From the IMG/VR virus record IMGVR_UViG_3300031555_001469: a stretch of DNA of 64,000 nt; one strand, 5' to 3'. This document shows positions 4,739 to 58,511 of this stretch, piece after piece. The translations under genes and the position numbers were made by a program. The notes below the pieces were generated by a model. It saw nothing but the letters and a program-made list of their open reading frames with translations. It did not search any database and was not told the origin of the DNA. How positions within the stretch are numbered: the first letter of the stretch is position 1; each line of letters begins with the position of its first letter. The stretch comes from a virus (lineage: Duplodnaviria; Caudoviricetes).

Positions 4739-7108
4739 ATGTCTACAATTTTAGGAGCAAACCCTTTAGGATTTGTAGTAAATGAATCCTCCTTGTTAGA
4801 TCTTGATTCCGTTATGCTTTCTGAAGAAAGTACCTATTTGTCTGAGACACTTAGATTTATTCAGGAATGCAATAGAGAATTTGACGAAGCTAATAAGGGA
4901 TGGTATAAATCTATATTAGAATCTGGAAATGACCAGGAAGTTATTACTGAATCTTTCCATAGTTTCTTTGTAAAGGTTAAAGATATCATTGATAAGTTTA
5001 TTGCTTACATTAAGTCTTTAGCAGAAAGATTCGTTACTGCTATTATGAGTATCAGTAAGAATGATAACTATATCAAGAAACACAAAGATGATTTAAAGAA
5101 GTTCGTTAACTCTAAAGACGAATTTGATTACGAAGGATACAAATTTACATTTGATCCTAACGTTCCTGTATGTGAAGTCGGTGCACAATTCACTCAGGAA
5201 TTTATTGAGTTAAAGATGTTAGGTGATGAAGTACTTAATGCTGATGACATTGCAGTTTCAATGAAGACTGTATATGATAACTTAATTAAGAAATTAGAGA
5301 ATGGTTTCTATGATGCGTTTAGAAAAGAAGTGCTGAATGTATCTAGAGATATATCTCAGTCTGACTTTGCTAATGAATGCTTCAGTGTATTTAGAGACAA
5401 TACTTCTGATAAGGAGAATATTACAATAAATGCTGAGTATGTAAATTCTGCATATCTTAGATTTACTAATTATTCTGATATGAAGAAGGATGTGGAAGGT
5501 ATCAAGAAGAGACTTGTAAAAGAGTATGAAGCTGTAAGAAAGCAGATTCTTGAAATCTCTAAGTCAAACTACACAGGTACCACAACTACAACTGATATTA
5601 ATCTTCCTGGTAACCAGATGACAGCTGTAACCCTTGCTGCAGAATCTGCTAAGTATTTAGATCTGTATATTAAGGCTAAGTCTGATCAGGTTCAGGAAAT
5701 GTCTAATATCCACGCAATTGCATTTGCATGTAAGTTAGATGCTATGAAGGCTGCTTTTGTACAGGATAAGACTATTCTTTATAAGGCTTTATCCAAGTGC
5801 CAAAGAGTTCATAACGAAGCTAACTATACTGACTATACCAAGGAATTCGAATATGCTTCTTTCTTAATGGAAAGCTTAGAGAATCAGAAGAGTATGGAAA
5901 GATATATTAAAGAATGCTGTATTATCAGTGAGGGTGTTGATGTATATGAAAGAATTCATGCTCTCAATGAAGGTGTTATTGGTGATAAGTTTAAGAAGTT
6001 TGTAGATTGGATTAAGGGCTTAATTGCTAAATTCATCGAAAAGCTTACTGGCTTATTTGCTAAAGATAAGACTTACCTTGAGAAATATAAGAATATTATC
6101 TTAGGTAAGAAGTTTAAGGAAACTACATTCTCTATGCCTGATTATTTTACAGGTATTCAGAGAATTGTTAAGACCGGTGTGCCACAGTTCAATTATATGT
6201 CTCAGGAAAAACTCTTAGCCGGTGAAAATGGAGAATTTGCTAAGTCTATTATTCAGGAATATAATCCTGCTAATTATGACTCTTTCTCCGCTTTCTGTAA
6301 GGAGTACTTCCAGGGAAGTAAAGAGAATAAGGATTATACTGGTGCTCAGATTGGGGCAAATATTAAAGATATTTATGACTTCTGCTATGACTATAAGAAG
6401 ATTGAAGATCAGATTAAGAAAGATCAGAACACAATTCTTAGTGGTGCTAAAAAGGCAGAAGATGTTTTAGTTAAAGCTTCCAAAGAAAATGAAGCTAATA
6501 GAACTCAGGCAGCTAATACAAATCAAACACAGGACAATGCTGCTAAACAGGAATCTATCACATACTCTGCGGTATATGATAGATTCTTTACTGAAGCAGA
6601 TGATGAAAAACCTGGTTTAGATATTAAAGCTCCTGAGAATAAACCAGAAGAAACAAGTAATAACAATGATAAGAGTGCTAAAGCTAACCTTAACAATATA
6701 TCCGATAAGGGTACAGAAGTTAAGAATGATAGTGATGAAGCTAAGGCTAATGCAGCTGGTCAGGAAGTTAAGCAGATTACTGAAAATACTAAGAGATATA
6801 CAGATGTCTGCGGTTCCTTATTGACAGCTAAATTAACCATCATTGAAAAGATTAGAGCTGACTTTATGAAGATCATTAGATACCACGTACAGAGCTATGT
6901 TGGTACTAAGGATGATAGAGGCGATAACAGAGGTGCGGATGCAGCCGGATCTGATTATCGTTCCGATGAGAAGAGACAGCAGAGCCAGGATAGCTCAGAT
7001 AATACTGAAAAGTCTGGAGATGCAGGCGAAAAGAAAAAAGGTCTCATCGATAAGGTTAAAGACGCACTTCCAGGAAAAACAAAAGCTACAAAACAGGCTG
7101 TTAAATAA
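4739..7108 (+). CDS. Internal head protein family paralog 3 (two tandem family domains)
   Basis: Two copies of the xxE(S/G)-amphipathic-helix-'DxxY(I/L)xK(H/Y)K' unit (ITES-FFVKVKDIIDKF and LNEG-FKKFVDWIKGLIAKF). Confidence 0.55.
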   Translation: MSTILGANPLGFVVNESSLLDLDSVMLSEESTYLSETLRFIQECNREFDEANKGWYKSILESGNDQEVITESFHSFFVKVKDIIDKFIAYIKSLAERFVTAIMSISKNDNYIKKHKDDLKKFVNSKDEFDYEGYKFTFDPNVPVCEVGAQFTQEFIELKMLGDEVLNADDIAVSMKTVYDNLIKKLENGFYDAFRKEVLNVSRDISQSDFANECFSVFRDNTSDKENITINAEYVNSAYLRFTNYSDMKKDVEGIKKRLVKEYEAVRKQILEISKSNYTGTTTTTDINLPGNQMTAVTLAAESAKYLDLYIKAKSDQVQEMSNIHAIAFACKLDAMKAAFVQDKTILYKALSKCQRVHNEANYTDYTKEFEYASFLMESLENQKSMERYIKECCIISEGVDVYERIHALNEGVIGDKFKKFVDWIKGLIAKFIEKLTGLFAKDKTYLEKYKNIILGKKFKETTFSMPDYFTGIQRIVKTGVPQFNYMSQEKLLAGENGEFAKSIIQEYNPANYDSFSAFCKEYFQGSKENKDYTGAQIGANIKDIYDFCYDYKKIEDQIKKDQNTILSGAKKAEDVLVKASKENEANRTQAANTNQTQDNAAKQESITYSAVYDRFFTEADDEKPGLDIKAPENKPEETSNNNDKSAKANLNNISDKGTEVKNDSDEAKANAAGQEVKQITENTKRYTDVCGSLLTAKLTIIEKIRADFMKIIRYHVQSYVGTKDDRGDNRGADAAGSDYRSDEKRQQSQDSSDNTEKSGDAGEKKKGLIDKVKDALPGKTKATKQAVK

Positions 7109-7119
7109 ACAAAATTTAT

Positions 7120-7146
7120 CCCGTAGGATCATAGAGATCCTACGGG
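7120..7146. terminator. Bidirectional terminator between convergent genes
   Basis: CCCGTAGGATC-ATAGA-GATCCTACGGG. Confidence 0.75.
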
Positions 7147-7151
7147 ACATT

Positions 7152-8351
7152 TTATGGTTTAATTCTAAATGAAAGCAAAGTATTCAATTCAAAATCCTGA
7201 TCGTCTCTTGTAAAGATGTCTACTTTCCTAGATAATAAAAAGTCTCCATCTAAATCAGAATGAGAATCAAAGTTTCTGATTACATATCTCTTATTAATAT
7301 TCAGTACAGATGTATCTAAGCCTACTTTATTCATAGTAAAAGTAATAGCTGCAGAATCAATATCTCCCTGAATATTAGCAAGCATATTTGTATTATTATT
7401 GCTTATCCTTACAATAGATTTCTTTTCATTAGAATACTGGGACTTATTTACTTTAAGTTCAGTATCCTTCTTATCACCTGCTGTTGTTGTAGCAGTTAAA
7501 GACGTATAAGACTTTTCTAATGTTTGATTCCTTTTCAAATCAGTATCTATTGATGCTACATTAATCTGGTAATTCTTTTGTGACTTATTGATATACATTC
7601 CGTCATGTTCCTGTGTATCCTTCAATACATCTTCTACTACAATAAGAACAGAAGTAATCGTTTCGCCTGCTGCTGGAACCTCCTTATTAGCAGAAGATAC
7701 GAGATAGCTTCTATCGAAATCCATAAAGAACCTATATGATGTCTTATAGAGTACACATAAAGAATTTAAATAGCTTATTAATTCAGATATACTATTTACT
7801 GACTGAATTAACTGCTTATCATAAGCTTCATTATAATCTAACTTTTCCATTACTAAATTTAATTTTTTAGTATAGAGTTTGATTATGTCATTAGGAGTAC
7901 CTGATATAGATGTACCTAATGCAAGAGCTTTGTTATTATTAATTACATCTAAAGGCATAAGTCCTAATGTAATCAATTTATATTTATCGCCAGTATTCTC
8001 ATCACCTGCATACTGTAATTTGTCAAGATAGTTTAAATCTTCATTTAAGAAGTATGTGCATTTACATTCTAATGCTTTTTCTTTCAGAGTTATATCAGCT
8101 TCTACCTTCTTATATATTCTAAGAATGATAGTATCTGTTTTATAATTCTTAATCAATTCGTCTATTGTTTTTGTTTCTAGAGCTAAATATGCGAATATCA
8201 TTGGCATATTGAATTTGTCGTAGTCTCTATCTATAACAATAGACTTCACTTGTTCTGGCATAAGAGTAGTAGACTTATTAGTTTTTTCGTTTATATAAAC
8301 CACTTCAATCTCATATCTATACTCAAGTAAAACAGCTTTACTAGCAGCCAT
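7152..8351 (-). CDS. Hypothetical protein, possibly baseplate hub-like
   Basis: 399-aa ORF with GGAGG RBS; beta-rich pattern; function inferred only weakly. Confidence 0.35.
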   Translation of the reverse strand: MAASKAVLLEYRYEIEVVYINEKTNKSTTLMPEQVKSIVIDRDYDKFNMPMIFAYLALETKTIDELIKNYKTDTIILRIYKKVEADITLKEKALECKCTYFLNEDLNYLDKLQYAGDENTGDKYKLITLGLMPLDVINNNKALALGTSISGTPNDIIKLYTKKLNLVMEKLDYNEAYDKQLIQSVNSISELISYLNSLCVLYKTSYRFFMDFDRSYLVSSANKEVPAAGETITSVLIVVEDVLKDTQEHDGMYINKSQKNYQINVASIDTDLKRNQTLEKSYTSLTATTTAGDKKDTELKVNKSQYSNEKKSIVRISNNNTNMLANIQGDIDSAAITFTMNKVGLDTSVLNINKRYVIRNFDSHSDLDGDFLLSRKVDIFTRDDQDFELNTLLSFRIKP

Positions 8352-8412
8352 AATTTAACCTCCTTTACAAAAAATAAAAGGCAATGAAAGTAAACTCTCA
8401 CTGCCTCCTATT

Positions 8413-9507
8413 TTATAATCTTTCTAAATCCAATGGACAGTTTTTGAACCACTGATTGTTAATGGCTTTAACTTCTTCTGGATTCTGTAAGTCAATAATA
8501 TAACTCAACTTACTCTCTGGATTATCCATATAACACATGTGGTTAAACTTCAAATCGATAGCTTTAAATCTATGAATCAAAGTCTGACATGCTATAGGGA
8601 ACTTACCTTCTTTATTCAATAAAGCATAATATACTTCATTCATATCAGCATTATATCCATTAATGATAGAATGGTCTGATGTGATTAAGAGAAGTTTATT
8701 TATTGCGGTATTGATATTTAATATGGTTATTATACCTCTAGCTGTTAGGTTAGTAATAGCCATCAGAAGAGATAATAACTCAGGGCTTAAAGAATAAGAT
8801 TTGACAAGAGCTTTATTAGAACTATTGTCTTCCTTGATGTTTCTTGAGTTTGCTATAAATGACTGTAATACATTATCATAGTTAACTAACCAAGACCCAT
8901 CGACCCCATTTGATTTTTTAGGTCTGAAGATTACAGTATCTCTTCTCATAGATGGTAGCTGATAAGCATACAGGTCCTTTGTCAATACAATATTAGGATT
9001 TGTATTACCACTAGCTTCTTCTCTATAAATGATATCAAGAGCTTTTACTGCAAATTCTTCATTTGTCTTAATAAAATAGATTCCGTGTAAGTATGGACAC
9101 AAAACTTCTAATAACTCCAAATTGTGATCTATCATGTCTCTAATCTTACCATTACTGGACACCATAGAAAGGTACTTTTCATAATATCCAGGATAAAATG
9201 TAGAATGAAGATAGTTCTTAGTCATATCGGAATATATTATAAATATTTTCGTATTCACGTTACAATATCTTCTATAGAATGCTCTCATATGAGCACATAG
9301 ATTTATAATACCAGAAGTGACAGAAGAATAATCTCCAATAACAACTCCTGAATTATAAAAGCTTTTAGTTATATTAGCCATATCAATATAGATATTGACA
9401 TTATTACAATTAGCATACGGCGTATTCACAAACGCTGCTTTAGTAAGATTCATCAATTGTTCGTTCTTAATATAATAAGATACTATCAATTGTTCTATTG
9501 AAACCAT
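8413..9507 (-). CDS. Putative 5'-3' exonuclease / T4 RNase H (FEN/PIN)-like protein
   Basis: N-terminal IYIDMAN and IVLTKDLYAYQL resemble FEN-family motifs; appears degenerate. Confidence 0.4.
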   Translation of the reverse strand: MVSIEQLIVSYYIKNEQLMNLTKAAFVNTPYANCNNVNIYIDMANITKSFYNSGVVIGDYSSVTSGIINLCAHMRAFYRRYCNVNTKIFIIYSDMTKNYLHSTFYPGYYEKYLSMVSSNGKIRDMIDHNLELLEVLCPYLHGIYFIKTNEEFAVKALDIIYREEASGNTNPNIVLTKDLYAYQLPSMRRDTVIFRPKKSNGVDGSWLVNYDNVLQSFIANSRNIKEDNSSNKALVKSYSLSPELLSLLMAITNLTARGIITILNINTAINKLLLITSDHSIINGYNADMNEVYYALLNKEGKFPIACQTLIHRFKAIDLKFNHMCYMDNPESKLSYIIDLQNPEEVKAINNQWFKNCPLDLERL

Positions 9508-9519
9508 TTAGATCCCCTC

Positions 9520-10032
9520 CTAGTACTTTTTAATTACTTTTCTTAAAATAGAAGCACAACTGCTACATATATTAGTTAACGGGACCGGCATCGATGTATG
9601 GGATGAACTACATAAAGGACAAATTCTTGGCTTAGACGTAAGCACCGAAGTCAATCTTGTTCTACATGTATTACATATTCCTGTTTCCCATAAATCTGCT
9701 TTCTTAGGGTCCATTGGTCTAGAGCATATTTTACATGCTTTAAGTGAACCCATTTCTTTCATACGTTGCAAACAATGGTCGCATACTTTCAGAACTGCAT
9801 TTCTACTATCTCCAGTAGTTTTAGTACTGCATATACGACACTCATACTCAAAGGTTTCTTTCTGTAATTTAAATTCTGTATCGTCAAAGAAACAAAATTC
9901 TAAACTACATCTATCTCCTTCGGTATTAAATATACAAGATTTTTTATCACATTTTAAAAACTCTTCATTTACGGAAGAATTTCCAGCACTACTAGATGTA
10001 GTGCTGGAACTATTGTTATTTATAAAAGCCAT
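9520..10032 (-). CDS. Multi-CxxC zinc-finger protein
   Basis: Several CxxC pairs (CRIC, CDHC, CKIC, CNTC, CPLC, CSSC); GGAGG RBS supports ATG at 10032; late-type motif at 10056-10068. Confidence 0.6.
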   Translation of the reverse strand: MAFINNNSSSTTSSSAGNSSVNEEFLKCDKKSCIFNTEGDRCSLEFCFFDDTEFKLQKETFEYECRICSTKTTGDSRNAVLKVCDHCLQRMKEMGSLKACKICSRPMDPKKADLWETGICNTCRTRLTSVLTSKPRICPLCSSSHTSMPVPLTNICSSCASILRKVIKKY

Positions 10033-41813: not shown

Positions 41814-42956
41814 TCAACTATTCTTTTCTCGATTGATTTCACTCAGTAATTTATTAATATAACTGAGGGTTACCAAACATTGCTGATATGCTTGAGCATT
41901 TTCTATATAAGATCTAGTTGCAAATGATGTAGTAATAATATCATTTACAGTAGACTTTAACTGAACGATAGACGTAACAACGAAATCTATCTGAATTGCA
42001 TTCTCAGAAGTCTTCATAACCGCTTTAATATCTTCTTCGATATTCTTAAGAGTCTTATAAAGATTCATAAAATTATCCAATAATTCAGTCTGTCTAATAG
42101 TAATTTGAGTAGGAGATAAATCAGCAAAAACCTGCTTCTCTAACTCTTTAATTTCATCATCTACTGAACCAGAAGTGTTATCATCTGTATTAGTGTCATC
42201 TTCTTCAGGAGCTTCTTCGGAGTCTTCTCCTTCTTCACCCTCATCAGATCCCTCTTCATCATCTGGGTCAGCTGCAGTATAATCTTCTATATCTTCACCG
42301 CCGTCTTCTGGAGATTCTTCTCCACCTTCATCAGATCCTTCATCTCCGTCAGGTTCAGATGCTGTATAATCTTCAGTATCACCATCATCTCCCTGAACCA
42401 TATCTAAATCTGATTCTCCATCTTCAGTTTCACCATCTCCCTCTGTATCATCATATCCAGAATCTGGATCATCTTCACTCGCAGGGTCTGGTTCATTTTC
42501 ATCATCGGTAGCAGTATAATCTTCAGGTTCATCTTCCGATGCTTCTTCTGGTTCTTCATCAGGTACATCTTCAGAGCCGTCGTTTCCTTCTTCTCCTTCG
42601 CCCTCTTCAGTATCAGGAGCTGAAGCAGTATAATCCTCAGAATCATCGTCATCGTCAGTAGGGTTAATATCTGAAATATCATCTTCATTATCAGGTTCTC
42701 CTTCTTCAGACCCCTCAGAATCTTCTGGTGCTGAATCAGCAGTATAATCTTCGGGATCTTCACCTTCAGGTGCATCCTCGCCTTCACTTGTTTCATCTGC
42801 CTCAGGGGAAGTAATTTCTTCCCCTTCAGCATCATCGTCCTGAGAATAATCGGTAGGCTTGTTATCGTCATCCTCTTCATCTTCTACAGTTTTTCCATTG
42901 ATATCTAATTCATGTATATAACCAAAGTTATATTTTTTTCCTGAATAAATTCCCAT
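41814..42956 (-). CDS. Highly acidic repeat protein, candidate scaffold/core protein
   Basis: D/E-rich region with five EDYTA repeats; MGIYS N-terminus; immediately upstream of the capsid gene. Confidence 0.5.
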   Translation of the reverse strand: MGIYSGKKYNFGYIHELDINGKTVEDEEDDDNKPTDYSQDDDAEGEEITSPEADETSEGEDAPEGEDPEDYTADSAPEDSEGSEEGEPDNEDDISDINPTDDDDDSEDYTASAPDTEEGEGEEGNDGSEDVPDEEPEEASEDEPEDYTATDDENEPDPASEDDPDSGYDDTEGDGETEDGESDLDMVQGDDGDTEDYTASEPDGDEGSDEGGEESPEDGGEDIEDYTAADPDDEEGSDEGEEGEDSEEAPEEDDTNTDDNTSGSVDDEIKELEKQVFADLSPTQITIRQTELLDNFMNLYKTLKNIEEDIKAVMKTSENAIQIDFVVTSIVQLKSTVNDIITTSFATRSYIENAQAYQQCLVTLSYINKLLSEINREKNS

Positions 42957-46328: not shown

Positions 46329-46354
46329 CCCCTAGTAGATTTCTCTACTAGGGG
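46329..46354. terminator. Terminator hairpin, CCTAGTAGA family
   Basis: CCCCTAGTAGA-TTTC-TCTACTAGGGG between convergent genes. Confidence 0.75.
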
Positions 46355-46362
46355 TATATTAT

Positions 46363-46656
46363 TTATTTTTTGGACTTTAATGTCACTATTAATGAGTTTG
46401 CTTCATCAGTTACTTTTCTTTCTACCTTAACCAGGCAATTATACGCACTATAATTTTCGGTGGTAGAATGCTTATCTAAATCTGTTCTCGTGACTGATAA
46501 TACATTGATGTTTTCAAATATCTTTTCGATATCAATTACACTTTTAGACTCATTCATAAAAGTTAAAGACAATACTGTTGTGTTAGTAGAATCTTTTCTT
46601 TCGGTAATTAAAGTTAATGTATTAAGTTCAATCTTATTATTAACCGTTATCTTCAT
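46363..46656 (-). CDS. Hypothetical protein, last gene of rSAM operon 2
   Basis: 97 aa; GGAGG RBS. Confidence 0.6.
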   Translation of the reverse strand: MKITVNNKIELNTLTLITERKDSTNTTVLSLTFMNESKSVIDIEKIFENINVLSVTRTDLDKHSTTENYSAYNCLVKVERKVTDEANSLIVTLKSKK

Positions 46657-46685
46657 TGTACATCTAGCCTCCTTTTATATTATTG

Positions 46686-47771
46686 TTAATCTGTACAAAC
46701 GCTATCACAGTAGCAATTGTCATCACAACCACAGTCATAATCACATACACAATTGTAATTACAGCAAGTACCATTACAACAATTATAGTCGCATGTACAA
46801 TCATTACCGCATCCATCTGCGCAGTCTCCATAACATCCACAGTCACTACCGCATCCATCCGGACAGTCATAATTACAACAGTCTTTATTACAAGAACAGT
46901 CTGTTCCACATCCGTCTGCACAATCACTATTACAAGAGCAATCTGAGCCACAACCATCTGCACAATCACTATTACAAGAGCAATCATAACAGTTATCATG
47001 TTGGCAATCTGAGTTACAGCAATCATAACATCCATCAAAATTACAACAATCGCCATTGCAAGCTCCATACCAAACATCTCCACAGTCATTACAATCTGTG
47101 CAATCAATGCATCCTTCTTGACAGTCTCTATTACAAGGACAGTCATTTACACAACAATCTGTTCCACATCCGTCTGCGCAGTCTCTATTACAAGAGCAAT
47201 CTGAACCACAACCATGTGCACAATCACTATTACAAGAACAGTCTGTACCGCAACCGTCTGAGCCGCAACCATGTGCGCAATTACTATTACAAGAACAGTC
47301 TGCACCACATCCATCTGCGCAATCGTTATCACACGGGCAATTGCTATCACAATAACAGTCATATACGCAACAATCGTAACACTTATTACTATCACAATCA
47401 CAGTCATAATCACAGCAGTTATTATCACAACTACAGTTGAAATTACAACAATCCTGATAGCAACTACAATAATCCTTATACACAGATGCTTGTGTTGAAG
47501 ATAGAGTATTAACTTGGCTAGGAGACATACCGCTTATATCGGTTGGTAATGTACTACCTTTATAATAATAATTCATTCTATCACTACTATCTTTAATACA
47601 AGCATTAATCTGATTAATCATATTAAGCAGATACTGTTTATTAACAACAGTACCAGACGTTAAAGTTGTTGCTGATCCTGAAAATCCATATCTATTATAA
47701 GTTTTAATTACATTAGAATTTATGGTATTCATATCAGCAGCTGTTAATTTTTCACCTGACGATATAGCCAT
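46686..47771 (-). CDS. Cys/Asp/Asn-rich repeat protein, putative substrate of the adjacent radical SAM enzyme
   Basis: About 100-aa N-terminal domain, then about 80 Cys including a repeated 14-aa unit DCSCNSDCADGCG(S/T). Confidence 0.75.
   Translation of the reverse strand: MAISSGEKLTAADMNTINSNVIKTYNRYGFSGSATTLTSGTVVNKQYLLNMINQINACIKDSSDRMNYYYKGSTLPTDISGMSPSQVNTLSSTQASVYKDYCSCYQDCCNFNCSCDNNCCDYDCDCDSNKCYDCCVYDCYCDSNCPCDNDCADGCGADCSCNSNCAHGCGSDGCGTDCSCNSDCAHGCGSDCSCNRDCADGCGTDCCVNDCPCNRDCQEGCIDCTDCNDCGDVWYGACNGDCCNFDGCYDCCNSDCQHDNCYDCSCNSDCADGCGSDCSCNSDCADGCGTDCSCNKDCCNYDCPDGCGSDCGCYGDCADGCGNDCTCDYNCCNGTCCNYNCVCDYDCGCDDNCYCDSVCTD
46890..47335 (-). repeat. Imperfect 42-bp coding repeats
   Basis: CAATCACTATTACAAGA(G/A)CA-type units recur and encode DCSCNSDC. 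Confidence 0.7.
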
Positions 47772-47804
47772 ACTTTTCACACTCCTATCTTTTGTTTACA
47801 AAGA

Positions 47805-49022
47805 TTATTCGTGTTTAGAACACTTACATTCTTTTTTACTAAGCTGTTCTATTTTTTCTTCTAATCGATTGCATCTCTTCTCTAAGTAATCGATCTTATT
47901 AACCATAGACTCTAATAACTTACTTGTATTTCTTCGCTCAATGATATTAATAAATCTATAGTAGTGTTTATTAATAACCGTCATAAATTTCTCGTCATAA
48001 TTATTAGGTCTAGTATATAAATCCCCACCAAATTCAAAGTTTACAGCTACACAAACCTGACAAGGATTATCAGACATCTTAGATTCATCAATAGCAGCAA
48101 ATATAGCCTGAATTTCAGGATTAATAGGATTTTCATTATGAATATTTCCATATAAAACATCATTTCTTCTTTCAGAATTATAGAAGAAGAATCTATGGCA
48201 AGGATAGATATTTCCATCCGTATCCATTCCAACCATTCTTCTTCCTGAAGAACAACCAGAACATCTATCGAATCGCTTAAATGGGAATCTATTCTTATTC
48301 AACGTAATTTTAGATAAATCAGAATTAATCTTATCTAATTCTCTATCTAAAATAAGTACATCGTTATCGTCCCAATCATCTTCTATTACCCAAGCAAATT
48401 TAAAGTGAACCTTTAAAGTTCTAATAAAATAAAGATAAGAATCATAAAGTCTTGGTAAAGAAGATTTAGAAATTACAGAATGAACGTGCAGTCTCTCATG
48501 AGATATATTGTGTTTGTCAAAGAATTCCTTAAACTTAGGAATAGCAGCTTCAACCAGATCAGAAGATTTAATACATGTATTAGCACATGGTCTATTACCA
48601 TTCTGAATTTCTGGAATACCATCAATAGATAACTGAATATCTACATACCCAGTCAATCTGTACCACTCTTCTAAAAAGGCTTCAACCTTTTCATTATAAA
48701 TAGTACCATTAGTAATAATAGCAAACTTTATTTTAACACCAGTTTCTTTTTCTTTTTCTACACCATATCTAAGCATACTTATCATAAGATCAGTGCAGAG
48801 CATTGGTTCGCCACCAAAGAATGTAATATTAACAGTTCGCTTCTTATCGTTAGAAGCAATAGCATTTGCGACTAAAAAGTCAATCATTTTAAATGCAGTT
48901 TCTTCACTCATATACTTTGAAACAGCTCTAGTATCCTTTTCAAAGCAATACGTACATCTTAAGTTACAGTTTTCTGTTAAAATAAAATAACAGGAAGTGA
49001 TATTGGTATCCATCATAACCAT
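47805..49022 (-). CDS. Radical SAM/SPASM-type maturase 2
   Basis: CNLRCTYC, FFGGEP, TNGT, SIDG; C-terminal CSSG...GNIYPCHRF...CQVC; late motif at 49069-49081. Confidence 0.9.
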   Translation of the reverse strand: MVMMDTNITSCYFILTENCNLRCTYCFEKDTRAVSKYMSEETAFKMIDFLVANAIASNDKKRTVNITFFGGEPMLCTDLMISMLRYGVEKEKETGVKIKFAIITNGTIYNEKVEAFLEEWYRLTGYVDIQLSIDGIPEIQNGNRPCANTCIKSSDLVEAAIPKFKEFFDKHNISHERLHVHSVISKSSLPRLYDSYLYFIRTLKVHFKFAWVIEDDWDDNDVLILDRELDKINSDLSKITLNKNRFPFKRFDRCSGCSSGRRMVGMDTDGNIYPCHRFFFYNSERRNDVLYGNIHNENPINPEIQAIFAAIDESKMSDNPCQVCVAVNFEFGGDLYTRPNNYDEKFMTVINKHYYRFINIIERRNTSKLLESMVNKIDYLEKRCNRLEEKIEQLSKKECKCSKHE

Positions 49023-49101: not shown

Positions 49102-49131
49102 AATCCTAGTAGAATTTAATCTACTAGGATT
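49102..49131 (-). terminator. Terminator hairpin, CCTAGTAGA family
   Basis: AATCCTAGTAGA-ATTTAA-TCTACTAGGATT. Confidence 0.7.
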
Positions 49132-49800: not shown

Positions 49801-50835
49801 ATGTATATAGGAATAGATGGTATAGCAAGACTTATATCAAAATTATATATTGGGATCAATGGAATAGCAAGAGAAATAACTAAAATGTATATAGGAGTAG
49901 ATGGATTAGCAAGATTAATATATCAAGCTGGCGTAGCAGCTGGTGAAGTAGTTTTTACTTCATCAAAATCTTGGACTGTGCCAGCAGGAGTTAGTAAAGT
50001 GGACATCTTCTGTGTAGGAGGTGGGGGTGGTGCAGGTGGCTGGTATTTTAGATACAATGAATCTAATAGTGCCGGTAGTTATACAGATACTACAAAAAAT
50101 GGCGGTTCAGGTGGCGGTGGGTATACTACAACAGCATTAGCTGTAGCAGTAACACCTGGCGAAACTCTTACTATTACAGTAGGTGCTGGTGGTGATAGAG
50201 GCGAAAGCTACGAATATTATAAATCATATGGTGAAACTGCACAACATTGGGGGTCCGTAACAAGTTCAGGTGACATTACAGCAGGAGCAACAGGTGGACA
50301 ATCATCTGTTAAAAATAGCAGCGGTACTGTATTATGTAGTGCTAATGGTGGTTCTGGTGGTGCTAAAGCTACGACTGGTACATCATCTGGAGCTTCTTAT
50401 GTATCAGCTGGAGGTGCTGGTGGTTCTGGTGGTGGTACTAGTACTGGTTGTTATTATGTATTTAATGGATCACAGGGAGATATTACAACTCATAGATCTT
50501 GGTTTAGTGCCGGTGGATCTACTGATATTTATAGAGCTGTAGATGGCGAAAGCGGCCCAAGTACTGAATATTATAGTGCATCATCAGATAGCACACCTAA
50601 CGTTTATAGTAAAGGTGGTACAGGCCAGGGCACGACTACAAGATATTTTGCGCAATCTGGAGGTACGTTATATGGCTCTGGAGGTACTCAACCATATGAT
50701 GCTACAAAAGTTTCTATAGGATATGGTCCTTGGGCTAATACAGGACATGGTGGCGGTTACGTATGGTATGATGGTTGGACTGGCGGATCTGCAGGATCTT
50801 CTGGTGTAGTTATCATTAGATGGGCTGCTCAATAA
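49801..50835 (+). CDS. Glycine-rich tail / receptor-binding-like protein
   Basis: Three 14-aa N-terminal repeats (YIGxxGxAR); WTVPAGVSKVDIFCVGGGGG...GSSGVVIIRW Gly-rich domain; late motif at 49764-49776. Confidence 0.65.
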   Translation: MYIGIDGIARLISKLYIGINGIAREITKMYIGVDGLARLIYQAGVAAGEVVFTSSKSWTVPAGVSKVDIFCVGGGGGAGGWYFRYNESNSAGSYTDTTKNGGSGGGGYTTTALAVAVTPGETLTITVGAGGDRGESYEYYKSYGETAQHWGSVTSSGDITAGATGGQSSVKNSSGTVLCSANGGSGGAKATTGTSSGASYVSAGGAGGSGGGTSTGCYYVFNGSQGDITTHRSWFSAGGSTDIYRAVDGESGPSTEYYSASSDSTPNVYSKGGTGQGTTTRYFAQSGGTLYGSGGTQPYDATKVSIGYGPWANTGHGGGYVWYDGWTGGSAGSSGVVIIRWAAQ

Positions 50836-50873: not shown

Positions 50874-53057
50874 TTATTTATATACTACATAAATAGTATC
50901 AGTTGCTAAAGCACTCGAACCAGCAGTTAAATCTGTCGTACCTTTAGTTATCGGTCTTAAATTATAGTCTGAATAATTTGCTGTATGGAGCACAACGTGA
51001 TCTTTATATGTGCCATCAGAAGCTACACATCTATATTGTAATCCATTTTTATCATTAGGCTGATAAGTGTAATTACAAACCAATAAGCCTCTATAAGCAT
51101 TTTCTTGCCCAGGGGTAGTATAAGCTCGTACAGTAGCATGATTAGCATCCGCCAAGAATCTCCCATAGCCACTTTGTACAGCTATATTTCCAGTTAATGT
51201 ACCACCACTCTTAGGTAATGCATAAGTGCTAATGTTTCCAGAGTGCACCATTGTAACATTACCTGTTGTATTACTATTGAAATCTATATGGAATGCTTTA
51301 GATATTGAATTATGCGTAGCAAAGAATCTAATATGATTATCACATACATCAATGTGTACATCTTTATCAAATACATTATTAGTTTCTGGTTTAGCTAATA
51401 CTATCTCTCCACCTTCGCTACCAGAAGCGGCCATTATATAAAGTCCACCAGTAAATGTAGTCTTTCCAGTAACAGTACCACCAGATGTTTTTAAATATGT
51501 GGTAGAAATTTTATTTCCATCACCATCATTTAATGCTCTATTGGCATAGTACCAATTAGCTGGATTTTCTATAGTATGATCTACTGTAGTCATTGGGGTT
51601 ATTGTATAAGACACATCCCAACCACTTCCCCAATCTTCATATTTATTACCCCAATGGCCTATTGTCACATCAGAAATTCTGATATTAGGATAAGACCATT
51701 GAGTATCGGAGTTACCAATCTGAACAACACATTGCCCCCCATTATTTCCAAAATGTACAGGTAAATTACTAATTGCTGAATTAGCAGCAGATCTGCTTAT
51801 GGAATATGCTGATATACATTGCCAAATAACAGAATCTTTACATATATATCCAGCAACAAAATAATCACATGATTTATCTGGTTCAAAATCATATATGGAA
51901 ATTTTGAATTTAATCATAGTATAAGAATAGAATTGAGGTAGAGTAATTGTTAAATATCCAGTAACATTAGCTTCTTTAATAGAATAACTACCGCCTTCTG
52001 GATAAGCAATATATCCATCTTTTCCTACAGCCGGCAATTGAATTTCGCCTGCTGTTTCTTCATCTAAAATTTTAAAATAATTTGCATTTACATCAAATCG
52101 GTATAAGCCAGTATACCCATCTCTCATTAATAAAGATCCGTAAGCTCCAGCTGCATTACCAAACTGAATTCCGGCATCACCGGTTGTTTCAGTTCTAAAT
52201 AATCTCAGCATAATTGGATCTGAATGGGCTATGCGTATAGAACCATTTATTATACCACCTGATAAAGGTAAGCAATACATGTCATAATTACCAGTATCTA
52301 AAATTTCTTCAGCTGTAGAGAAATCACTAGATGCTCGCACTAAATAGCCATTGCTAAATCCGATAGAACCCATAATTTTAGCTTTATTGGCAAAGGCGAG
52401 CATTGAAGTATTATATTCACTAATATCATTAAGCATTAAAGGTATCATAGAAGCAGTTATTGCTTGCGAACCTATCACTTTAACTGCAGAGGAATCAATA
52501 TTATCAATGGCTTCAGTAATAGTACTACCAATTGAACTAATGTCAGTATCTCCTATTTTTGTAATCAATTCTATTAAACTCTTTATAGCTTTAGAAATTG
52601 ATCCAAATAAAGTTTTCATTGTACTTCCGGATGCAACTTCAGCCAAAGTTTCATCCTCAGTAAATTCTACCGTATTTGTACCTATGTCAGAATATTTTTC
52701 GACATAATTAAATAGATCTAAGTTAAATGCTTCTAATACTTGAGGCTCCTCTCCATCCCACCAAAAGTCAGGTGAACCCATATCTCTTATAAGAAAAGTA
52801 TCACCTACTTTGAGTGTAGCAATATTCTCATCAGTTAACCAAGCCTCTAATTCATCTATTGTATCAAAAACACGTATTGTTGTAGCTCCTTGAGCCATCG
52901 ATAATGCCATTTTAGCATTTTGTGAACTTTCCTCCACTTCACTATACAATTTAGTTACATTGCTAGATAATGACTCTAAATTTATTTTGTCTTCTTTAGA
53001 CATTAAACCATCTCTAGCACCTGTAGCAAAAGATCTAGGGAAATTATTATGAAGCAT
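50874..53057 (-). CDS. Tail fibre protein A
   Basis: True start MLHNNFPRSFAT with GGAG RBS; DGLMSKEDK; repeated LPxSGGxxxG fibre motifs; late motif at 53092-53104. Confidence 0.7.
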   Translation of the reverse strand: MLHNNFPRSFATGARDGLMSKEDKINLESLSSNVTKLYSEVEESSQNAKMALSMAQGATTIRVFDTIDELEAWLTDENIATLKVGDTFLIRDMGSPDFWWDGEEPQVLEAFNLDLFNYVEKYSDIGTNTVEFTEDETLAEVASGSTMKTLFGSISKAIKSLIELITKIGDTDISSIGSTITEAIDNIDSSAVKVIGSQAITASMIPLMLNDISEYNTSMLAFANKAKIMGSIGFSNGYLVRASSDFSTAEEILDTGNYDMYCLPLSGGIINGSIRIAHSDPIMLRLFRTETTGDAGIQFGNAAGAYGSLLMRDGYTGLYRFDVNANYFKILDEETAGEIQLPAVGKDGYIAYPEGGSYSIKEANVTGYLTITLPQFYSYTMIKFKISIYDFEPDKSCDYFVAGYICKDSVIWQCISAYSISRSAANSAISNLPVHFGNNGGQCVVQIGNSDTQWSYPNIRISDVTIGHWGNKYEDWGSGWDVSYTITPMTTVDHTIENPANWYYANRALNDGDGNKISTTYLKTSGGTVTGKTTFTGGLYIMAASGSEGGEIVLAKPETNNVFDKDVHIDVCDNHIRFFATHNSISKAFHIDFNSNTTGNVTMVHSGNISTYALPKSGGTLTGNIAVQSGYGRFLADANHATVRAYTTPGQENAYRGLLVCNYTYQPNDKNGLQYRCVASDGTYKDHVVLHTANYSDYNLRPITKGTTDLTAGSSALATDTIYVVYK

Positions 53058-53115
53058 CTTATCAGCTCCTTTCTCTTTAGGGTCTTTAGTATTATTAGGA
53101 TGTTTCCGTAGTAAA

Positions 53116-53144
53116 AGCCAGAGTATCAGAAAGATACTCTGGCT
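53116..53144 (-). terminator. Terminator hairpin, CCAGAGTATC family
   Basis: AGCCAGAGTATC-5 nt-GATACTCTGGCT with a T-tract on the minus strand. Confidence 0.7.
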
Positions 53145-53148
53145 AATT

Positions 53149-54561
53149 TTATTTATCTTTTTCTTCACTTCTACGTTTAAGTTCTTGCCAAGTAATATCT
53201 CCTTTATACTCCAAACTAGGAAGAGAAAGTAACATTTCAAATTCCTCTTCTGGAATAATTTTGAGAGCCCACTCTCTTGAAACGTATAAGTTATACCTAT
53301 TTTCAGGCTCTTTAAGTTCATAGTATTTAGCCCAATAATAAGCATTTGCTAAAGCTCTTGCTTTATGCATTTCACAGATATATGTCGCACGCTTATTAGC
53401 AGTACCATATGTCTGATAATTGTAAGCTGAGCACCATGAGCACCCATCTGCAATAGGGCAATAAAAGCATTCATCAGTACTCTGAGTTTTTCTATCAATA
53501 CAATTTAAGCAATTGATATTACAAGAATAATCTTCGGAAGTACCAATACCTTCATCAACACTACCTATTCTTAAAGGTTTTCTTGAACAACCTAAAGAAC
53601 TTTCCATATATCTAATACAAGGATAAAGATAACCATCTGGGTCACAGGCTAACATAAGGCAGTTACCACCACACCAATTTGTTATATCATCCTCATGTTT
53701 AGGTACAAAAAATTTCTCATCGAAAATGGATAAGAACACATCTTCAACCACATCTTTTTCAATTATATAATCAGCAGCTTGCTTTAACTGATAATATAAT
53801 TCGGTAGCATGGTGTTGTTCCCATCCTTCTTCATACACACAATTAGCATTAATATCTTTATAACCTAATTCAATCATGTGTTTTAAAGCAGAAAATACAT
53901 GCTGTATATTAGCCGGGGCAATAGTGATTTTACTTCCCATATAGTACCCTTTGGACATCCAATCTGTAGCACCAGCAATAGCAATATCATAGCTAGGAGA
54001 TCCATCGTGGAATACTCTACAGCTATCATGCAATTCTTTATTCCCGTCTATTGTAATAGAAAAAGAAATATTGTTTTTATACTTATCTAAGAATTTCTGC
54101 ACTCTTTCGTCAAAGTATAATACACCATTAGAGCAGATAGATATCATAAACTTATCAACCCATGGATGGTTCAATCTAATACATTCACGAAAGAAATAAC
54201 TTACTATCTTATCAATTAACTCTATTTCTAAAAAAGGTTCCCCACCAATAAATTCAATTATAACAGCAGGAGATTTAGAAGGGTTAATATATTCATCAAA
54301 TCCTTTTTCTCCACTAAGCAATAAATCGATAAATTTCTTAGCAGTTTCAAAAGACATTTTTCTTTGGCCTTTGTTAATCTGGTAGCAATAAGTACATGCC
54401 AGATTACAAGCGTCTGTTACCTGAAAAGTAACTGTACGAGATAAAGTAGAATTTGTTGATTTACCAGATTCATCTACTGTAACCAACTCAGGATATAATC
54501 TTGCAATCTTATCCTGATACTGTTCAAATTCTCGCCTGTTTCTTTTTCTCTCTCTAAGCAT
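53149..54561 (-). CDS. Radical SAM/SPASM peptide maturase, CXXX-repeat target family-like
   Basis: TFQVTDACNLACTYCYQ, FIGGEP; full SPASM WCGG...YPCIRY...CFYCPIADGCSWCSAYNY...ICEMH; resembles TIGR04115 as recalled. Confidence 0.88.
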   Translation of the reverse strand: MLRERKRNRREFEQYQDKIARLYPELVTVDESGKSTNSTLSRTVTFQVTDACNLACTYCYQINKGQRKMSFETAKKFIDLLLSGEKGFDEYINPSKSPAVIIEFIGGEPFLEIELIDKIVSYFFRECIRLNHPWVDKFMISICSNGVLYFDERVQKFLDKYKNNISFSITIDGNKELHDSCRVFHDGSPSYDIAIAGATDWMSKGYYMGSKITIAPANIQHVFSALKHMIELGYKDINANCVYEEGWEQHHATELYYQLKQAADYIIEKDVVEDVFLSIFDEKFFVPKHEDDITNWCGGNCLMLACDPDGYLYPCIRYMESSLGCSRKPLRIGSVDEGIGTSEDYSCNINCLNCIDRKTQSTDECFYCPIADGCSWCSAYNYQTYGTANKRATYICEMHKARALANAYYWAKYYELKEPENRYNLYVSREWALKIIPEEEFEMLLSLPSLEYKGDITWQELKRRSEEKDK

Positions 54562-54910
54562 TATGATCATCTCCTGATAATTCAAAGTTATCAAATGCTG
54601 TTCCGATTGTAGAGAATGTTAAAATACCAGAAGTAAAATCCAAGTTCCAATTTGCTACTGCATTAGCCTTCATGATTTCTTCTGGAATATAATTATTAAT
54701 TAATTCGTTCTTTCCTAATTCATAAGCAGCAACTCTTTCATTATACTTCTTATTATAAAGAACAAATGTTTCAGATTCAAGAATAGCAGGGTTATTAGCA
54801 TTATCTGTAATAAGCTCCTTAATAATCCTTGACATTCCTTCAAGTTCGAAAGATAATCTTTCGAGATAATCTACAGTTTCACTATTTACTTTCATAGCAA
54901 AATTTTTCAT
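54554..54910 (-). CDS. CXXX-repeat modification system accessory protein-like
   Basis: Helical protein ending NWNLDFTSGILTF, resembling TIGR04116 as recalled; overlaps the rSAM start; late motif at 54937-54949. Confidence 0.55.
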   Translation of the reverse strand: MKNFAMKVNSETVDYLERLSFELEGMSRIIKELITDNANNPAILESETFVLYNKKYNERVAAYELGKNELINNYIPEEIMKANAVANWNLDFTSGILTFSTIGTAFDNFELSGDDHNA

Positions 54911-54961: not shown

Positions 54962-55912
54962 TTATATAGTTTTACCAGTAGCTCCCCCAAAGCATTGAGA
55001 GGTACAAGAAGTATTACATGTAGAACTACAAGTAGAGCTACAACTACTCTTACAATTTCCAGAACAACTACTTGAACATCCATAACATCCACCATCGCAT
55101 CCAGAGCAACCAGAACATGATCCACCGCATCCAGAGCATCCATAGCAGTCTCCAGAGCATCCGCTACCACAACCACTACTACATCCAGAACAACCAGAAC
55201 ATGAACTACATCCATCACATCCAGAGCAACTAGTACATTGCCATCCACATCCACCAGTACATCCGCCACCGCAAGAAGCACTACAGCCACTACTACAGTT
55301 AGCAGAACCATCTGTTGATCCTGAACATGAACCTGTACAGCTAGTACAACCAGCACCGCATCCACCGCATGAAGAACAACCACTTCCGCATCCAGAGCAT
55401 CCGCCGCATCCACTACTACATCCACCACATCCAGAACATCCACTACATCCAGAGCATGAACCGCAGCCAGAACATCCCTTACAACCGTAAGTACAAGATG
55501 ATCCGCAACCAGAGCAGCCACCACATCCACCACATCCAGAACATCCACTACAACCAGTATTACACATACCATAACATAATCCAGTACATGCACCTCTACA
55601 AGAAGAAGATGAACCTGTTACAGATTCAGCTGCCCATTTATCTAATACACTATTTAAAGTAGCATAGTCGAAACTAGAAGGCAATTTTTCTCCAGCAACG
55701 ACATTTCTTAAATTACCTACGTCTGCTACTTTTAAAATTAAATCAATAGTTTTCTGCCCATGCTCCGCTAAAATTTTGCCGCCGGTAGCAGGACTAGTAG
55801 TAAAATCATAAGTAGCAGCAGTATAACCACTTAGTGAGCCATAATATTGTCTTCTGGCAAACTCAGTTTTTATTTTTGCTTTTATCGCAATTAATTCAGA
55901 CGGAGTCATCAT
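54962..55912 (-). CDS. Cys/Gly/Ser-rich CxxC/CxxxC repeat protein 1 (putative rSAM substrate)
   Basis: About 100-aa N-terminal domain, then about 57 Cys spaced every 3-4 residues; late motif at 55973-55985. Confidence 0.8.
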
Positions 55913-56044: not shown

Positions 56045-56866
56045 TTAACTTTTTGTTGATGTTCCATAACACTGTGCAGTACACGTACTATAACAAGTAC
56101 TACTGCAAGTAGTATTACAGCTATTGATACATCCCGATGAACAGCTAGATGAACAGCCTCCTCCGCATCCAGAGCAGCTAGAACATCCGCTTGAACAATC
56201 AGCACATCCATTACACCCGCTACAAGAACTACAATGACCATCACATCCAGCACATAGCCCTTGACAGCCATTTACGCATGTACTATAGCATCCTCCACTA
56301 CACGTACTAGAACACATAGTACAATTAGCTTGACAGGCTCCAGAACATGACATACTACAACTGGTACAACCATTACAGCCAGAACATCCACCTTGACATC
56401 CTACTGAGCATGTATTACCACAAGCTGTATCACATCCACTACATGTACCGCAACCTGTACATCCGTTACAACTATTTTCGCAACCTGAACACCCACTACA
56501 TCCAGAACAAGTAGAACCACAAGTACCTACACATAAGCCAGTACATGCACCTCTACAAGAAGATGTAGCTCCGGTAATTTCTTCAGTTGCTAAAATGTCT
56601 ACATAATTAATTAAAGCTTCATCAAAACCACTCGGTATTAATAAACCAGTCGATACACTAGGTAATCCCTCATGATCTTTTATCTTTAATAGTAATTCAA
56701 TAGTTTTTTGACCATGCTCTGCTCTTATTAATTCTCCTGCAATTGGAGTAAATAAAAAATCATAATTAGCAGACGTATAGCCAGCTAACGATCCATAGTA
56801 TTTTCTTCTAGCAAACTCATCCTTAATTTTACTCTTTAGTGTAATTAGCTGAGCTGCTGATAACAT
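56045..56866 (-). CDS. Cys/Gly/Ser-rich repeat protein 2 (paralog of 54962)
   Basis: Shares EFARRxYYGSL, AEHGQKTI and [11 protein letters not shown] with 54962; about 46 Cys. Confidence 0.8.
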   Translation of the reverse strand: MLSAAQLITLKSKIKDEFARRKYYGSLAGYTSANYDFLFTPIAGELIRAEHGQKTIELLLKIKDHEGLPSVSTGLLIPSGFDEALINYVDILATEEITGATSSCRGACTGLCVGTCGSTCSGCSGCSGCENSCNGCTGCGTCSGCDTACGNTCSVGCQGGCSGCNGCTSCSMSCSGACQANCTMCSSTCSGGCYSTCVNGCQGLCAGCDGHCSSCSGCNGCADCSSGCSSCSGCGGGCSSSCSSGCINSCNTTCSSTCYSTCTAQCYGTSTKS

Positions 56867-56891: not shown

Positions 56892-58511
56892 TTAGGATAC
56901 CATAATAAGTATCTTAACTTTTCCAATATCATCGGTATCTTTATTTTCTAAAGCTTTACCGATAATTGTTCCAGGAATAACAATATTTCTATCCTGAGTT
57001 ATTCCTACACCAGGTACATCTGAAGGGATAATAAGATCACCTTTAGATACAGTACCTTTTACTTTTACATATAATCGTCCTGCTAAACCAACAGGTACGA
57101 ACTTCTTATGGTTATCTTCCATATCTTCTAATTGTTCTCCTCCGACAATATGGCCATAGGAATCAGAATAAACACCAACGACCATAGTATCTCCATAACA
57201 ACTAGATTTAGTTACACCAGATTCTGCCCAAGAGACAATATCTCCCGGTTCAAATTCTTCGTGTATATTCTCTTTCTCAAACCACTCGGCATAGTCGTTC
57301 CAAACTGCGTTGTAAACTTTACTACCAGTGATTGTACCAGAAGCATTAATAGCTCCAGCTTTAAAAGTTACAGAATTTATTGATAAAGTACCACTAGCAG
57401 ATTCAATAATTCTTGATGTATAATCTGCAGTAGAACTACCAAAATGGAAATCAATATATGGTGTAGCTGCAAAAAGCTCCATACATTGACTTTCGAAAGT
57501 AGTACCTTTAATTGTAGCAGCACAATAAAAACTCTTTCCGCCAGATACTTTTACATATGTAGTATCTTCCATAAAAATACCGCCACCATAAGTACTATTG
57601 TACCACCCGTTACTGTATATATTTGCACATTTAACTGGAGCGTTAGCTGCTCCATCTTGAGCCATAAAATTAAATACGCCTGTATTATCCATTAATAACG
57701 AAGCTGCTATAACACCATTCCAATGGAATCCTATAGAAGGAGCATATCCTATTGTAGATTGAGTATTGCCAACTAATCCATTTTCTCTTATAGTTATGGC
57801 AGCATTGTTAAACCTATTTGCAGCTGTAGCTGTATATATACCGGCTGGTTCAAATAATCTTTTTCCGTTCATATTTATATCTCCAGTCATGATACCACCA
57901 GAGAGTTTTAAATATGATTTAGAAATATTACTAACTGCTTCAGATACGGTAGTACCTGAATCACTAACATCAGTAGATCCGACCCTAGCAATTAAACTTA
58001 TTAAATCGCTTACTGCTTTAGAAACAGTAGCAAATAATGTAGTTAATTTACTTCCGCTACTAATTTTTGTTAATTCTGTAGCTTCTGTATAAGCAACCGT
58101 AGTATTGCTCGCATTTCCTGATAAAGTAAGATAGTCACTAAGATCCACTTTTTCTGTTTCAAGAATCTGAAGCTCTTCGCCATCCCACCAATAGTCAGGA
58201 TTGTACATATCTTTGATTAATAAAGTCGTACCTATTTTGAGTCCAGCTTTATTTGTCTCTACTGCTAACCATGCATCTAAATCAGCTTTGGTTTCAAATA
58301 CAATAGCAGATACTTTATCGAGCGCTGTTTGTAACGCTAAATTAGCTAAATCTTTTACTTCTGGAACTTCACCTAAAAGATAATCGATATCAGCCCTATT
58401 TTCAGTAATATTTTTTGGAAATGTGTTATCCACTAAATATTTATCTTCTTTAGACATTAACCCATCTCTTGCAGATGTAGCAAAAGATCTAGGCAAATTA
58501 TTATGAAGCAT
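56892..58511 (-). CDS. Tail fibre protein B with a C-terminal intramolecular chaperone (peptidase G2-like) domain
   Basis: Same N-terminus as fibre A; C-terminal DYAEWF...PGDIV...VGLAGRLYVKV...KGDLI...IIGKALE; late motif at 58556-58568. Confidence 0.7.
   Translation of the reverse strand: MLHNNLPRSFATSARDGLMSKEDKYLVDNTFPKNITENRADIDYLLGEVPEVKDLANLALQTALDKVSAIVFETKADLDAWLAVETNKAGLKIGTTLLIKDMYNPDYWWDGEELQILETEKVDLSDYLTLSGNASNTTVAYTEATELTKISSGSKLTTLFATVSKAVSDLISLIARVGSTDVSDSGTTVSEAVSNISKSYLKLSGGIMTGDINMNGKRLFEPAGIYTATAANRFNNAAITIRENGLVGNTQSTIGYAPSIGFHWNGVIAASLLMDNTGVFNFMAQDGAANAPVKCANIYSNGWYNSTYGGGIFMEDTTYVKVSGGKSFYCAATIKGTTFESQCMELFAATPYIDFHFGSSTADYTSRIIESASGTLSINSVTFKAGAINASGTITGSKVYNAVWNDYAEWFEKENIHEEFEPGDIVSWAESGVTKSSCYGDTMVVGVYSDSYGHIVGGEQLEDMEDNHKKFVPVGLAGRLYVKVKGTVSKGDLIIPSDVPGVGITQDRNIVIPGTIIGKALENKDTDDIGKVKILIMVS

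Follow-up and report, generated by a model that had tools for sequence, protein, structure and literature searches.

A conserved phage cassette of a radical-SAM enzyme and a Cys/Asp/Asn-repeat protein as a candidate thioether-stapling system

What would a jumbo phage do with two radical S-adenosylmethionine (SAM) enzymes, each encoded beside a different kind of Cys-repeat protein? The question is raised by a 64,000-nucleotide stretch of phage DNA (Duplodnaviria; Caudoviricetes; IMG/VR record IMGVR_UViG_3300031555_001469), here called the window. One of its two radical-SAM cassettes, module 2, encodes the enzyme rSAM2, the Cys/Asp/Asn-rich protein C3 and a small protein of 97 amino acids (aa). 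A preliminary description of this DNA had proposed that rSAM2 and C3 are an orthogonal second pair, making Cys-Asp/Asn thioethers. The overall reading reached here is that module 2 is a self-contained cassette in which rSAM2 staples the C3 tail with many thioethers, and that C3 is probably associated with the virion; its probability is put at about 0.5. The features concerned are:

46363-49022, minus strand: module 2, three genes (rSAM2, C3 and the 97-aa protein)
47805..49022, minus strand: rSAM2, a 405-aa radical-SAM protein
46686-47780, minus strand: C3 open reading frame (ORF); real start at ATG 47771, giving 361 aa
47469..47771, minus strand: C3 N-terminal domain, ~101 aa, ending at a conserved D-Y-C junction
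46686..47468, minus strand: C3 Cys/Asp/Asn repeat tail, 260 aa with 80 Cys, the presumed modification target
46363-46656, minus strand: third gene of the cassette, conserved, 97 aa

The first part of the question is whether the enzyme and the repeat protein belong together. Comparative genomics indicates that they do, and an rSAM2-type enzyme and a C3-type protein are likely to form an enzyme-substrate pair. Cassettes were collected from the enzyme side and from the substrate side, and the cassette of rSAM2-like, C3-like and ~97-aa protein genes was found in about 11 distinct phage or prophage contexts from gut Clostridia. Those collected from the enzyme side with the genes in this order are:

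L001, a 227-kb contig: two C3 paralogues
L002, L003, L005, L039-L041 and L044: Lachnospiraceae-type prophages with baseplate genes
L038, L042 and L043: further enzyme-side contexts

At one more locus (L037) the rSAM2-like enzyme is again followed by a C3-like gene, and the small protein, a member of the 97-aa family, instead lies upstream, before a fibre gene. From the substrate side, four C3-like proteins (P0128, P0133, P0125 and P0129) each have an rSAM2-family gene immediately upstream, with the small protein downstream where the DNA suffices. Apart from a single homologue (L004), every enzyme of the rSAM2 clade with enough flanking DNA adjoins an Asp/Asn-type Cys protein. A comparison with 185,579 species genomes gave just four loci above 40% identity; each is in a metagenome-assembled genome of Clostridia, and each has the cassette. 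In the enzyme tree, the 63 enzymes of at least 41% identity are monophyletic (support 0.77). In four (L001, L002-type, L037 and L038) of the five lineages for which upstream sequence is available, the gene directly before the cassette encodes a tail fibre whose C-terminal domain is chaperone-like.

The second part of the question is what kind of enzyme rSAM2 is. It belongs to the radical SAM superfamily (Pfam PF04055, 47.6 bits; cut-off 29.5), and its SAM-cluster motif CX3CX2C, formed by C19, C23 and C26, is kept in 41 of 42 homologues. The C-terminal part of the 42-sequence family alignment has exactly four (nearly) invariant Cys: C257, C275, C321 and C324. Within this auxiliary region, the CX9-15GX4C element is intact (C257-x12-G270-x4-C275), and CX2CX5CX3C has shrunk to C321-x2-C324. 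The seven-Cys SPASM motif as defined by PF13186 is absent from all 42 family members, which have only the CX2C of CX2CX5CX3C and no conserved final Cys. As judged from this alignment, rSAM2 keeps the ligands for one auxiliary [4Fe-4S] cluster, for which the four conserved C-terminal Cys suffice, and is probably twitch-like; it is not a full SPASM enzyme. A comparable C...C...CxxC ligand set is present in BtrN. The four-ligand set of rSAM2 fits the published definition of a twitch domain, a truncated SPASM domain with ligands for a single auxiliary cluster (PMC9012708).

Structural comparison places the enzyme more closely. The AlphaFold2 model of rSAM2 has a predicted local distance difference test score (pLDDT) of 92, and its top Foldseek match is CteB (5WGG/5WHY, E 3e-21), followed by anSME, ChlB and SkfB (6EFN). 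CteB is also matched when the rSAM2 profile is compared with Protein Data Bank (PDB) sequences (E 2e-38). These matches put rSAM2 in the CteB/PapB/anSME structural class of radical-SAM enzymes that modify peptides or proteins. In comparison with the twitch group (SkfB, BtrN and MoaA), it stands distinctly nearer to CteB and anSME, which are SPASM enzymes, and it resembles a SPASM domain from which the second cluster has been lost more than it does a classical twitch enzyme. A prediction of the complex of rSAM2 with C3 residues 1-127 scored 0.00; this gives no verdict and is not evidence either way.

The C-terminus of rSAM2 (residues 342-401, 47805-47999) is predicted to be a single helix of ~60 residues, with pLDDT of about 95 except in the last residues. 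The other enzymes of the family are about as long, and some end in C-x-C, like the K-E-C-K-C-S of the window enzyme. Oligomerisation or docking are possibilities for this modelled helix.

The third part of the question concerns the substrate and where on it a reaction might occur. The C3 ORF opens with GTG at 47780, but the start is ATG 47771, with AGGAG 10 nt upstream and with homologues that all begin M-A/S-I-S; C3 is therefore 361 aa long. Its ORF contains 81 Cys, 57 Asp and 38 Asn, with one Cys in the N-terminal ~101 residues and 80 in the tail. The tail is 31% Cys, 20% Asp, 11% Asn and 5% Tyr, and has 53 acidic residues against 4 basic ones. Asp or Asn directly precedes 39 of the 80 tail Cys (39 [DN]C against 24.5 +/- 3.5 in shuffles, z 4.2) and lies at position +3 of 51 of the 80. 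CxC occurs 17 times and CC nine times. A 14-aa unit, C-x-C-[NDY]-x-x-C-A-[DH]-G-C-G-x-D, is present in seven copies, and Tandem Repeats Finder reports 42-nt periods at 46886-46985 and 47153-47260. Both the preliminary count of about 80 Cys, many preceded by Asp or Asn and arranged in CxC and CC patterns, and the 14-aa repeat are thus borne out. Scored against composition-preserving shuffles, the motifs of the tail are:

CxxxC: observed 44, z 5.8, the dominant spacing
CxxD: observed 35, expected 15.8, z 6.5
DC: observed 31, z 5.0
NxxC: observed 18, expected 8.6, z 4.1
CxxC: observed 6, z -5.3, depleted
CxxxD: observed 7, expected 15.7, z -3.0, depleted

The enriched motif of the tail is C-x-x-[D/N], together with N-x-x-C, and not C-x3-D. 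The same position stands out across the family. An exhaustive HMMER search of 1.84 billion proteins with the C3 N-domain returned 12 cluster representatives at E<=0.001, one of which (P0131) was rejected as a spurious, wrong-frame repeat protein. All true members share the ~101-aa N-domain up to D-Y-C, followed by a Cys/Asp/Asn tail whose length is very variable (26 to 332 residues in 16 members). Over these 16 tails, Asp occupies position Cys+3 in 44% of cases and Asn in 17%, enrichments of 2.1x and 1.8x.

Other searches for C3 relatives were negative: tblastn of C3 against 50,697 GenBank phage records gave no match, and scans of IMG/VR and JGI metagenomes with the N-domain found nothing. Simpler homologue searches with the tail or the N-domain scored nothing, probably through composition filtering and word limits, where the exhaustive HMMER search succeeded. 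C3 has no family match in Pfam or NCBIfam, including none to metallothioneins.

The N-domain itself is modelled by AlphaFold2 as helical (residues 11-27, 45-60 and 84-100; pLDDT about 85-93). Foldseek found no PDB match at E<=0.001, and a wide VIA-align search gave only generic helical matches (Z<=6.6). Comparison with BFVD gave weak matches to uncharacterised phage proteins, and a shape search of the Atlas found a resemblance to the N-termini of other large phage proteins, including PF27846 clusters; these are leads only.

In a 208-kb IMG/VR phage contig (L018, 1619-7050), five radical-SAM-like genes are packed around a 124-aa protein whose N-terminal part weakly matches the C3 N-domain (E 1e-4) and which ends in (C-H-S-N)x3. 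This resembles the enzyme and repeat-protein idea in miniature.

The next part of the question is whether module 2 differs from the other radical-SAM cassette of the window, module 1, whose components are:

53149..54594, minus strand: rSAM1, 481 aa, a bona fide TIGR04115 CXXX-repeat-target maturase (499.4 bits, cut-off 350)
56045-56866 and 54962-55912, minus strand: module 1 substrates C1 and C2, Gly/Ser-type Cys-repeat proteins

The two systems have a common plan: each has a radical-SAM enzyme of its own, a Cys-repeat protein whose N-domain is ~100 aa long, a small third protein and a position adjoining a fibre gene. CxxxC is the dominant Cys spacing in both. They differ in what lies between the Cys, which is Asp, Asn and Tyr in C3 and Gly, Ser and Thr, at a spacing of 3 or 4, in the module 1 substrates; the initial view that the C3 tail is unlike the Gly/Ser tracts of module 1 is upheld. 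So is the claim of a shorter auxiliary region in the partner enzyme, rSAM2 having 405 aa and 5 auxiliary-region Cys against 481 aa and 13 in rSAM1. The enzymes are 24% identical and far apart in the tree, and every TIGR04115 enzyme considered (in the window, L001 and L011) adjoins a Gly/Ser-type repeat protein. Lachnospiraceae prophages have module 2 without module 1, and L011 has module 1 without module 2. As far as gene comparison can tell, there is good evidence for two enzyme-substrate specificities in one phage. Of the proposed orthogonal second pair, the distinctness holds: the 24% identity, the tree and the matching of enzyme clade to repeat type indicate a pair that is not a copy of module 1. 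The likeness to PapB is weaker than had been implied, given 149 bits against a cut-off of 340, ligands for one cluster and a depletion of C-x3-D.

Homology between the C3 N-domain and that of module 1 was considered and not shown (hhalign probability 3.6%). None of C1, C2 and C3 gave an NCBIfam or Pfam match, and so none to the CXXX-target models (TIGR04114/TIGR04117, PF27846); as the Pfam set used appears to be without PF27846, and even the module 1 proteins beside a true TIGR04115 enzyme were missed, this negative carries no information. The next relatives of the rSAM2 clade include an enzyme in a 235-kb phage contig (L006) that lies beside a different, CxC..R-type Cys protein. There (5941-9969), a radical-SAM enzyme 34% identical to rSAM2 is followed by a 261-aa protein with C-x-C...R-type repeats and 24 Cys, and then by two further radical-SAM-like genes. 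The repeats here would amount to a third 'code'.

In L001, the Gly/Ser-type target appears split: a 178-aa ORF (1029-1565) has the Gly/Ser-type N-domain and a short Cys tail, and seventeen bases on, a 304-aa ORF (1583-2497) with 76 Cys is Cys-rich from its start and lacks an N-domain. Possible causes are a split gene, a sequencing error and recoding. Between the module 1 substrates and rSAM1 in the window lies a 118-aa gene (54554-54910, minus strand) without a family match, which has a 97-aa counterpart in L001 (2548-2841) and may be the module 1 equivalent of the 97-aa gene of module 2.

Which chemistry could rSAM2 perform? Three characterized systems offer points of comparison. PapB, which acts on PapA to give the ranthipeptide freyrasin (NF047865), is like module 2 in being a radical-SAM enzyme that works on a Cys- and Asp-rich repeat with the acceptor C-terminal to the Cys. 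It joins Cys to a C-terminal Asp or Glu at any spacing from i+1 to i+7, and has two auxiliary clusters (PMC12373016). Freyrasin is a short secreted peptide with six C-x3-D rings, whereas C3, 361 aa long, has a folded N-domain and up to ~50 C-x-x-[D/N] sites and is encoded in a phage tail-fibre region. By analogy, the PapB type of reaction is not excluded for C-x-x-D, i+3 being tolerated in vitro (PMC12373016). CteB, the maturase of the SCIFF peptide CteA (thermocellin), is the best structural and profile match to rSAM2; it forms thioethers and uses an auxiliary cluster in catalysis. It differs in having an N-terminal RiPP recognition element (RRE; RiPP, a peptide made by the ribosome and modified after translation) of ~90 residues and a full CX2CX5CX3C, whereas rSAM2 has no such element and CX2C only, at 24-25% identity. 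NxxcB joins a Cys by a thioether to the C-beta of an Asn that precedes it by three residues, and accepts Asp as well (PMC9389541). The N-x-x-C motif is enriched in the C3 tail; NxxcA, however, is a short quorum-regulated streptococcal peptide with a single link, and the 25 NCBIfam models that rSAM2 matches best include none of the NxxcB type. The structural matches of rSAM2 also include SkfB, a RiPP maturase that forms thioethers.

By analogy with these enzymes, thioether cross-links in the C3 tail are slightly favored, and Asp or Asn as the acceptor is a tentative assignment at somewhat under even odds. If rSAM2 follows this route, the reaction would involve: splitting of SAM to a 5'-deoxyadenosyl radical; abstraction of hydrogen from a side-chain carbon, most plausibly the C-beta of the Asp or Asn three residues after a Cys; and joining of the Cys thiol, held on the auxiliary cluster, to that carbon. 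With repetition along the tail, as many as ~50 small thioether rings of the C-x-x-[D/N] type could form, and the anticipated product is a rigid, strongly acidic rod or knob, resistant to reduction and to proteases. The helical N-domain would stay on rather than be cleaved, and would probably fix the cross-linked tail to the apparatus of the tail fibre or baseplate. No peptidase, protease, transporter or exporter gene is present in any cassette locus. Given this absence and the location of the cassette in tail-fibre regions, the C3 product is more likely retained than exported as a peptide.

Several observations weigh against this reading, in whole or in part. The evidence linking enzyme and tail is indirect, and at L004 no C3-like gene lies between the enzyme and the next gene. 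In NCBIfam, rSAM2 falls below every curated cut-off; its best score is to the PapB model (NF047865, 148.8 bits against 340), and it reaches 95.1 bits on TIGR04115 against a cut-off of 350. Ligands for one auxiliary cluster are all that the rSAM2 family keeps, against two clusters in PapB, and the characterized Cys-Asp/Asn thioether enzymes cited are all of the SPASM type. The C-x3-D spacing native to PapB is depleted in the tail. Substrate recognition is also at issue: rSAM2 has no recognisable N-terminal RRE and opens directly with the radical-SAM core, since its alignment to CteB begins at CteB residue 92. Association of C3 with the virion, an evenly poised claim, is drawn from gene position, and in the window three small genes and a plus-strand gene stand between the cassette and the nearest fibre gene.

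These points leave room for other explanations. One is that rSAM2 does modify C3, but by another chemistry (an alpha-carbon sactionine, a CteB-type gamma-carbon link, an anSME-type formylglycine or other), with Asp and Asn serving solubility, charge or metal binding. The closest solved structures, CteB and anSME, include no Cys-Asp enzyme; the position of rSAM2 under all family cut-offs means that chemistry is not transferable by homology; and a one-cluster architecture is known in a sactipeptide-type maturase, SkfB. Yet the family-wide enrichment of Asp and Asn exactly at Cys+3 suggests a positional role for them. The PapB model is the top NCBIfam score for all members of the rSAM2 clade tested (three members score 134.8-188.9 bits), and the anSME target motif, C/S-x-P/A-x-R, is absent from the C3 tail. 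A different chemistry is considered unlikely.

More improbable still is that C3 remains unmodified as a metallothionein-like binder of metal or Fe-S clusters, with rSAM2 acting on the fibre or a small molecule, or using C3 as a cluster or sulfur reservoir. A tail so rich in Cys, with CxC and CC, and so acidic would suit this role, and the evidence linking enzyme and tail is indirect. Against it, the enzyme and the Cys/Asp protein are strictly co-inherited and adjacent in about 11 contexts, with enzyme clade matching repeat type; the common metal-chelating motif CxxC is strongly depleted (z -5.3); and the tail contains aromatic residues (Tyr 5%), with no metallothionein match in Pfam or NCBIfam. 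An equally small chance is given to the cassette being a moron that makes a released RiPP-like product, such as a bacteriocin, signalling peptide or anti-defence factor, freed at lysis. Sites between tail-fibre and lysis genes commonly take up accessory genes, the cassette has its own terminators, and this enzyme class is best known from RiPP biosynthesis. However, no cassette locus contains a leader peptidase, ABC exporter or immunity gene; the conserved part of C3 is a folded domain of ~100 aa, not a short leader; jumbo phages and small prophages alike retain the cassette, always in the fibre region; and, as a lead, the N-domain shape resembles the N-termini of other large phage proteins.

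Should the thioether-stapling reading of module 2 hold, radical-SAM thioether chemistry would no longer be confined to short secreted peptides but would include a viral protein of full size and probably of structural role: the chemistry of peptide antibiotics would be used on a whole, probably virion-associated, protein. This would be a new type of virion maturation, suited to anaerobic hosts in which disulfides are unavailable. It would also mean thioether formation by an enzyme without the second SPASM cluster, bearing on the purpose of that cluster, an open question (PMC9012708). Naturally orthogonal cross-linking enzymes with simple repeat codes (C-x-x-D/N and Gly/Ser CXXX) would then be usable for protein stapling. 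A wider and rather doubtful proposal is that phages of anaerobes staple host-recognition parts through several orthogonal enzyme/repeat codes (Gly/Ser, Asp/Asn and CxC..R), that this jumbo phage runs two of them, and that the Asp/Asn code specifies a polyanionic ladder of ~50 rings made by a one-auxiliary-cluster enzyme. No description of phage radical-SAM and Cys-repeat modules was found in the literature. Curated databases already contain the class of Cys-repeat target with radical-SAM maturase (TIGR04115, PF27846). No family model captures the cassette of the Asp/Asn type and its clade of one-cluster enzymes, and both enzyme clade and target family are unclassified in Pfam, NCBIfam and PHROGs.

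The third gene of the cassette lies within the interval covered by the preliminary description, which did not mention it. Homologues are found directly downstream of the C3-like gene in ten loci (L001, L002, L038, L041-L044, L121, L122 and L124). The 97-aa protein has no informative Pfam or PHROG match, and the nearest neighbours of its low-confidence Atlas model (pLDDT 0.64) are beta-rich. An RRE-like role was considered; with low confidence, these modelled neighbours are not like a winged-helix RRE.

The cassette is delimited by two hairpins:

49102..49131, minus strand: terminator-like hairpin on the upstream side, where the preceding 60-aa gene ends
46329..46354: bidirectional terminator-like hairpin of 11 pairs, closing the cassette and common to the convergent prohead-protease gene

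Shine-Dalgarno sequences precede all three genes. By eye, no late-promoter motif common to the structural genes was obvious in the upstream sequences, and a sigma-70 scan of the window gave chance level only. The window is AT-rich (~34% GC) and represents the structural region of a jumbo phage, with a capsid protein, a prohead protease of the S77 type and two tail-fibre genes in addition to the two radical-SAM cassettes. Its major capsid protein is a distant relative of those of Yersinia phiR1-37 and Listeria LPJP1.

The two tail-fibre genes (50874-53345 and 56892-58511, both minus strand) have nearly identical first ~25 residues, M-L-H-N-N-[LF]-P-R-S-F-A-T..., and this common N-terminus suggests that both fibres dock at the same site. 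In the 823-aa fibre ORF the motif begins at about residue 97, so the true start is probably the internal ATG at the motif; the 5' extension overlaps the end of rSAM1. A lone plus-strand gene within the minus-strand block (49801-50835) encodes a 344-aa Gly-rich protein (PF21722 Gly_rich_2, E 1e-11) with three 'Y-I-G-[IV]-[DN]-G-[IL]-A-R' units at its N-terminus. Adjoining the capsid gene, a minus-strand gene (41814-42956) encodes a 380-aa protein whose first ~270 residues are extremely acidic and in which the motif E-D-Y-T-A recurs; a role as scaffold or internal head protein is possible.

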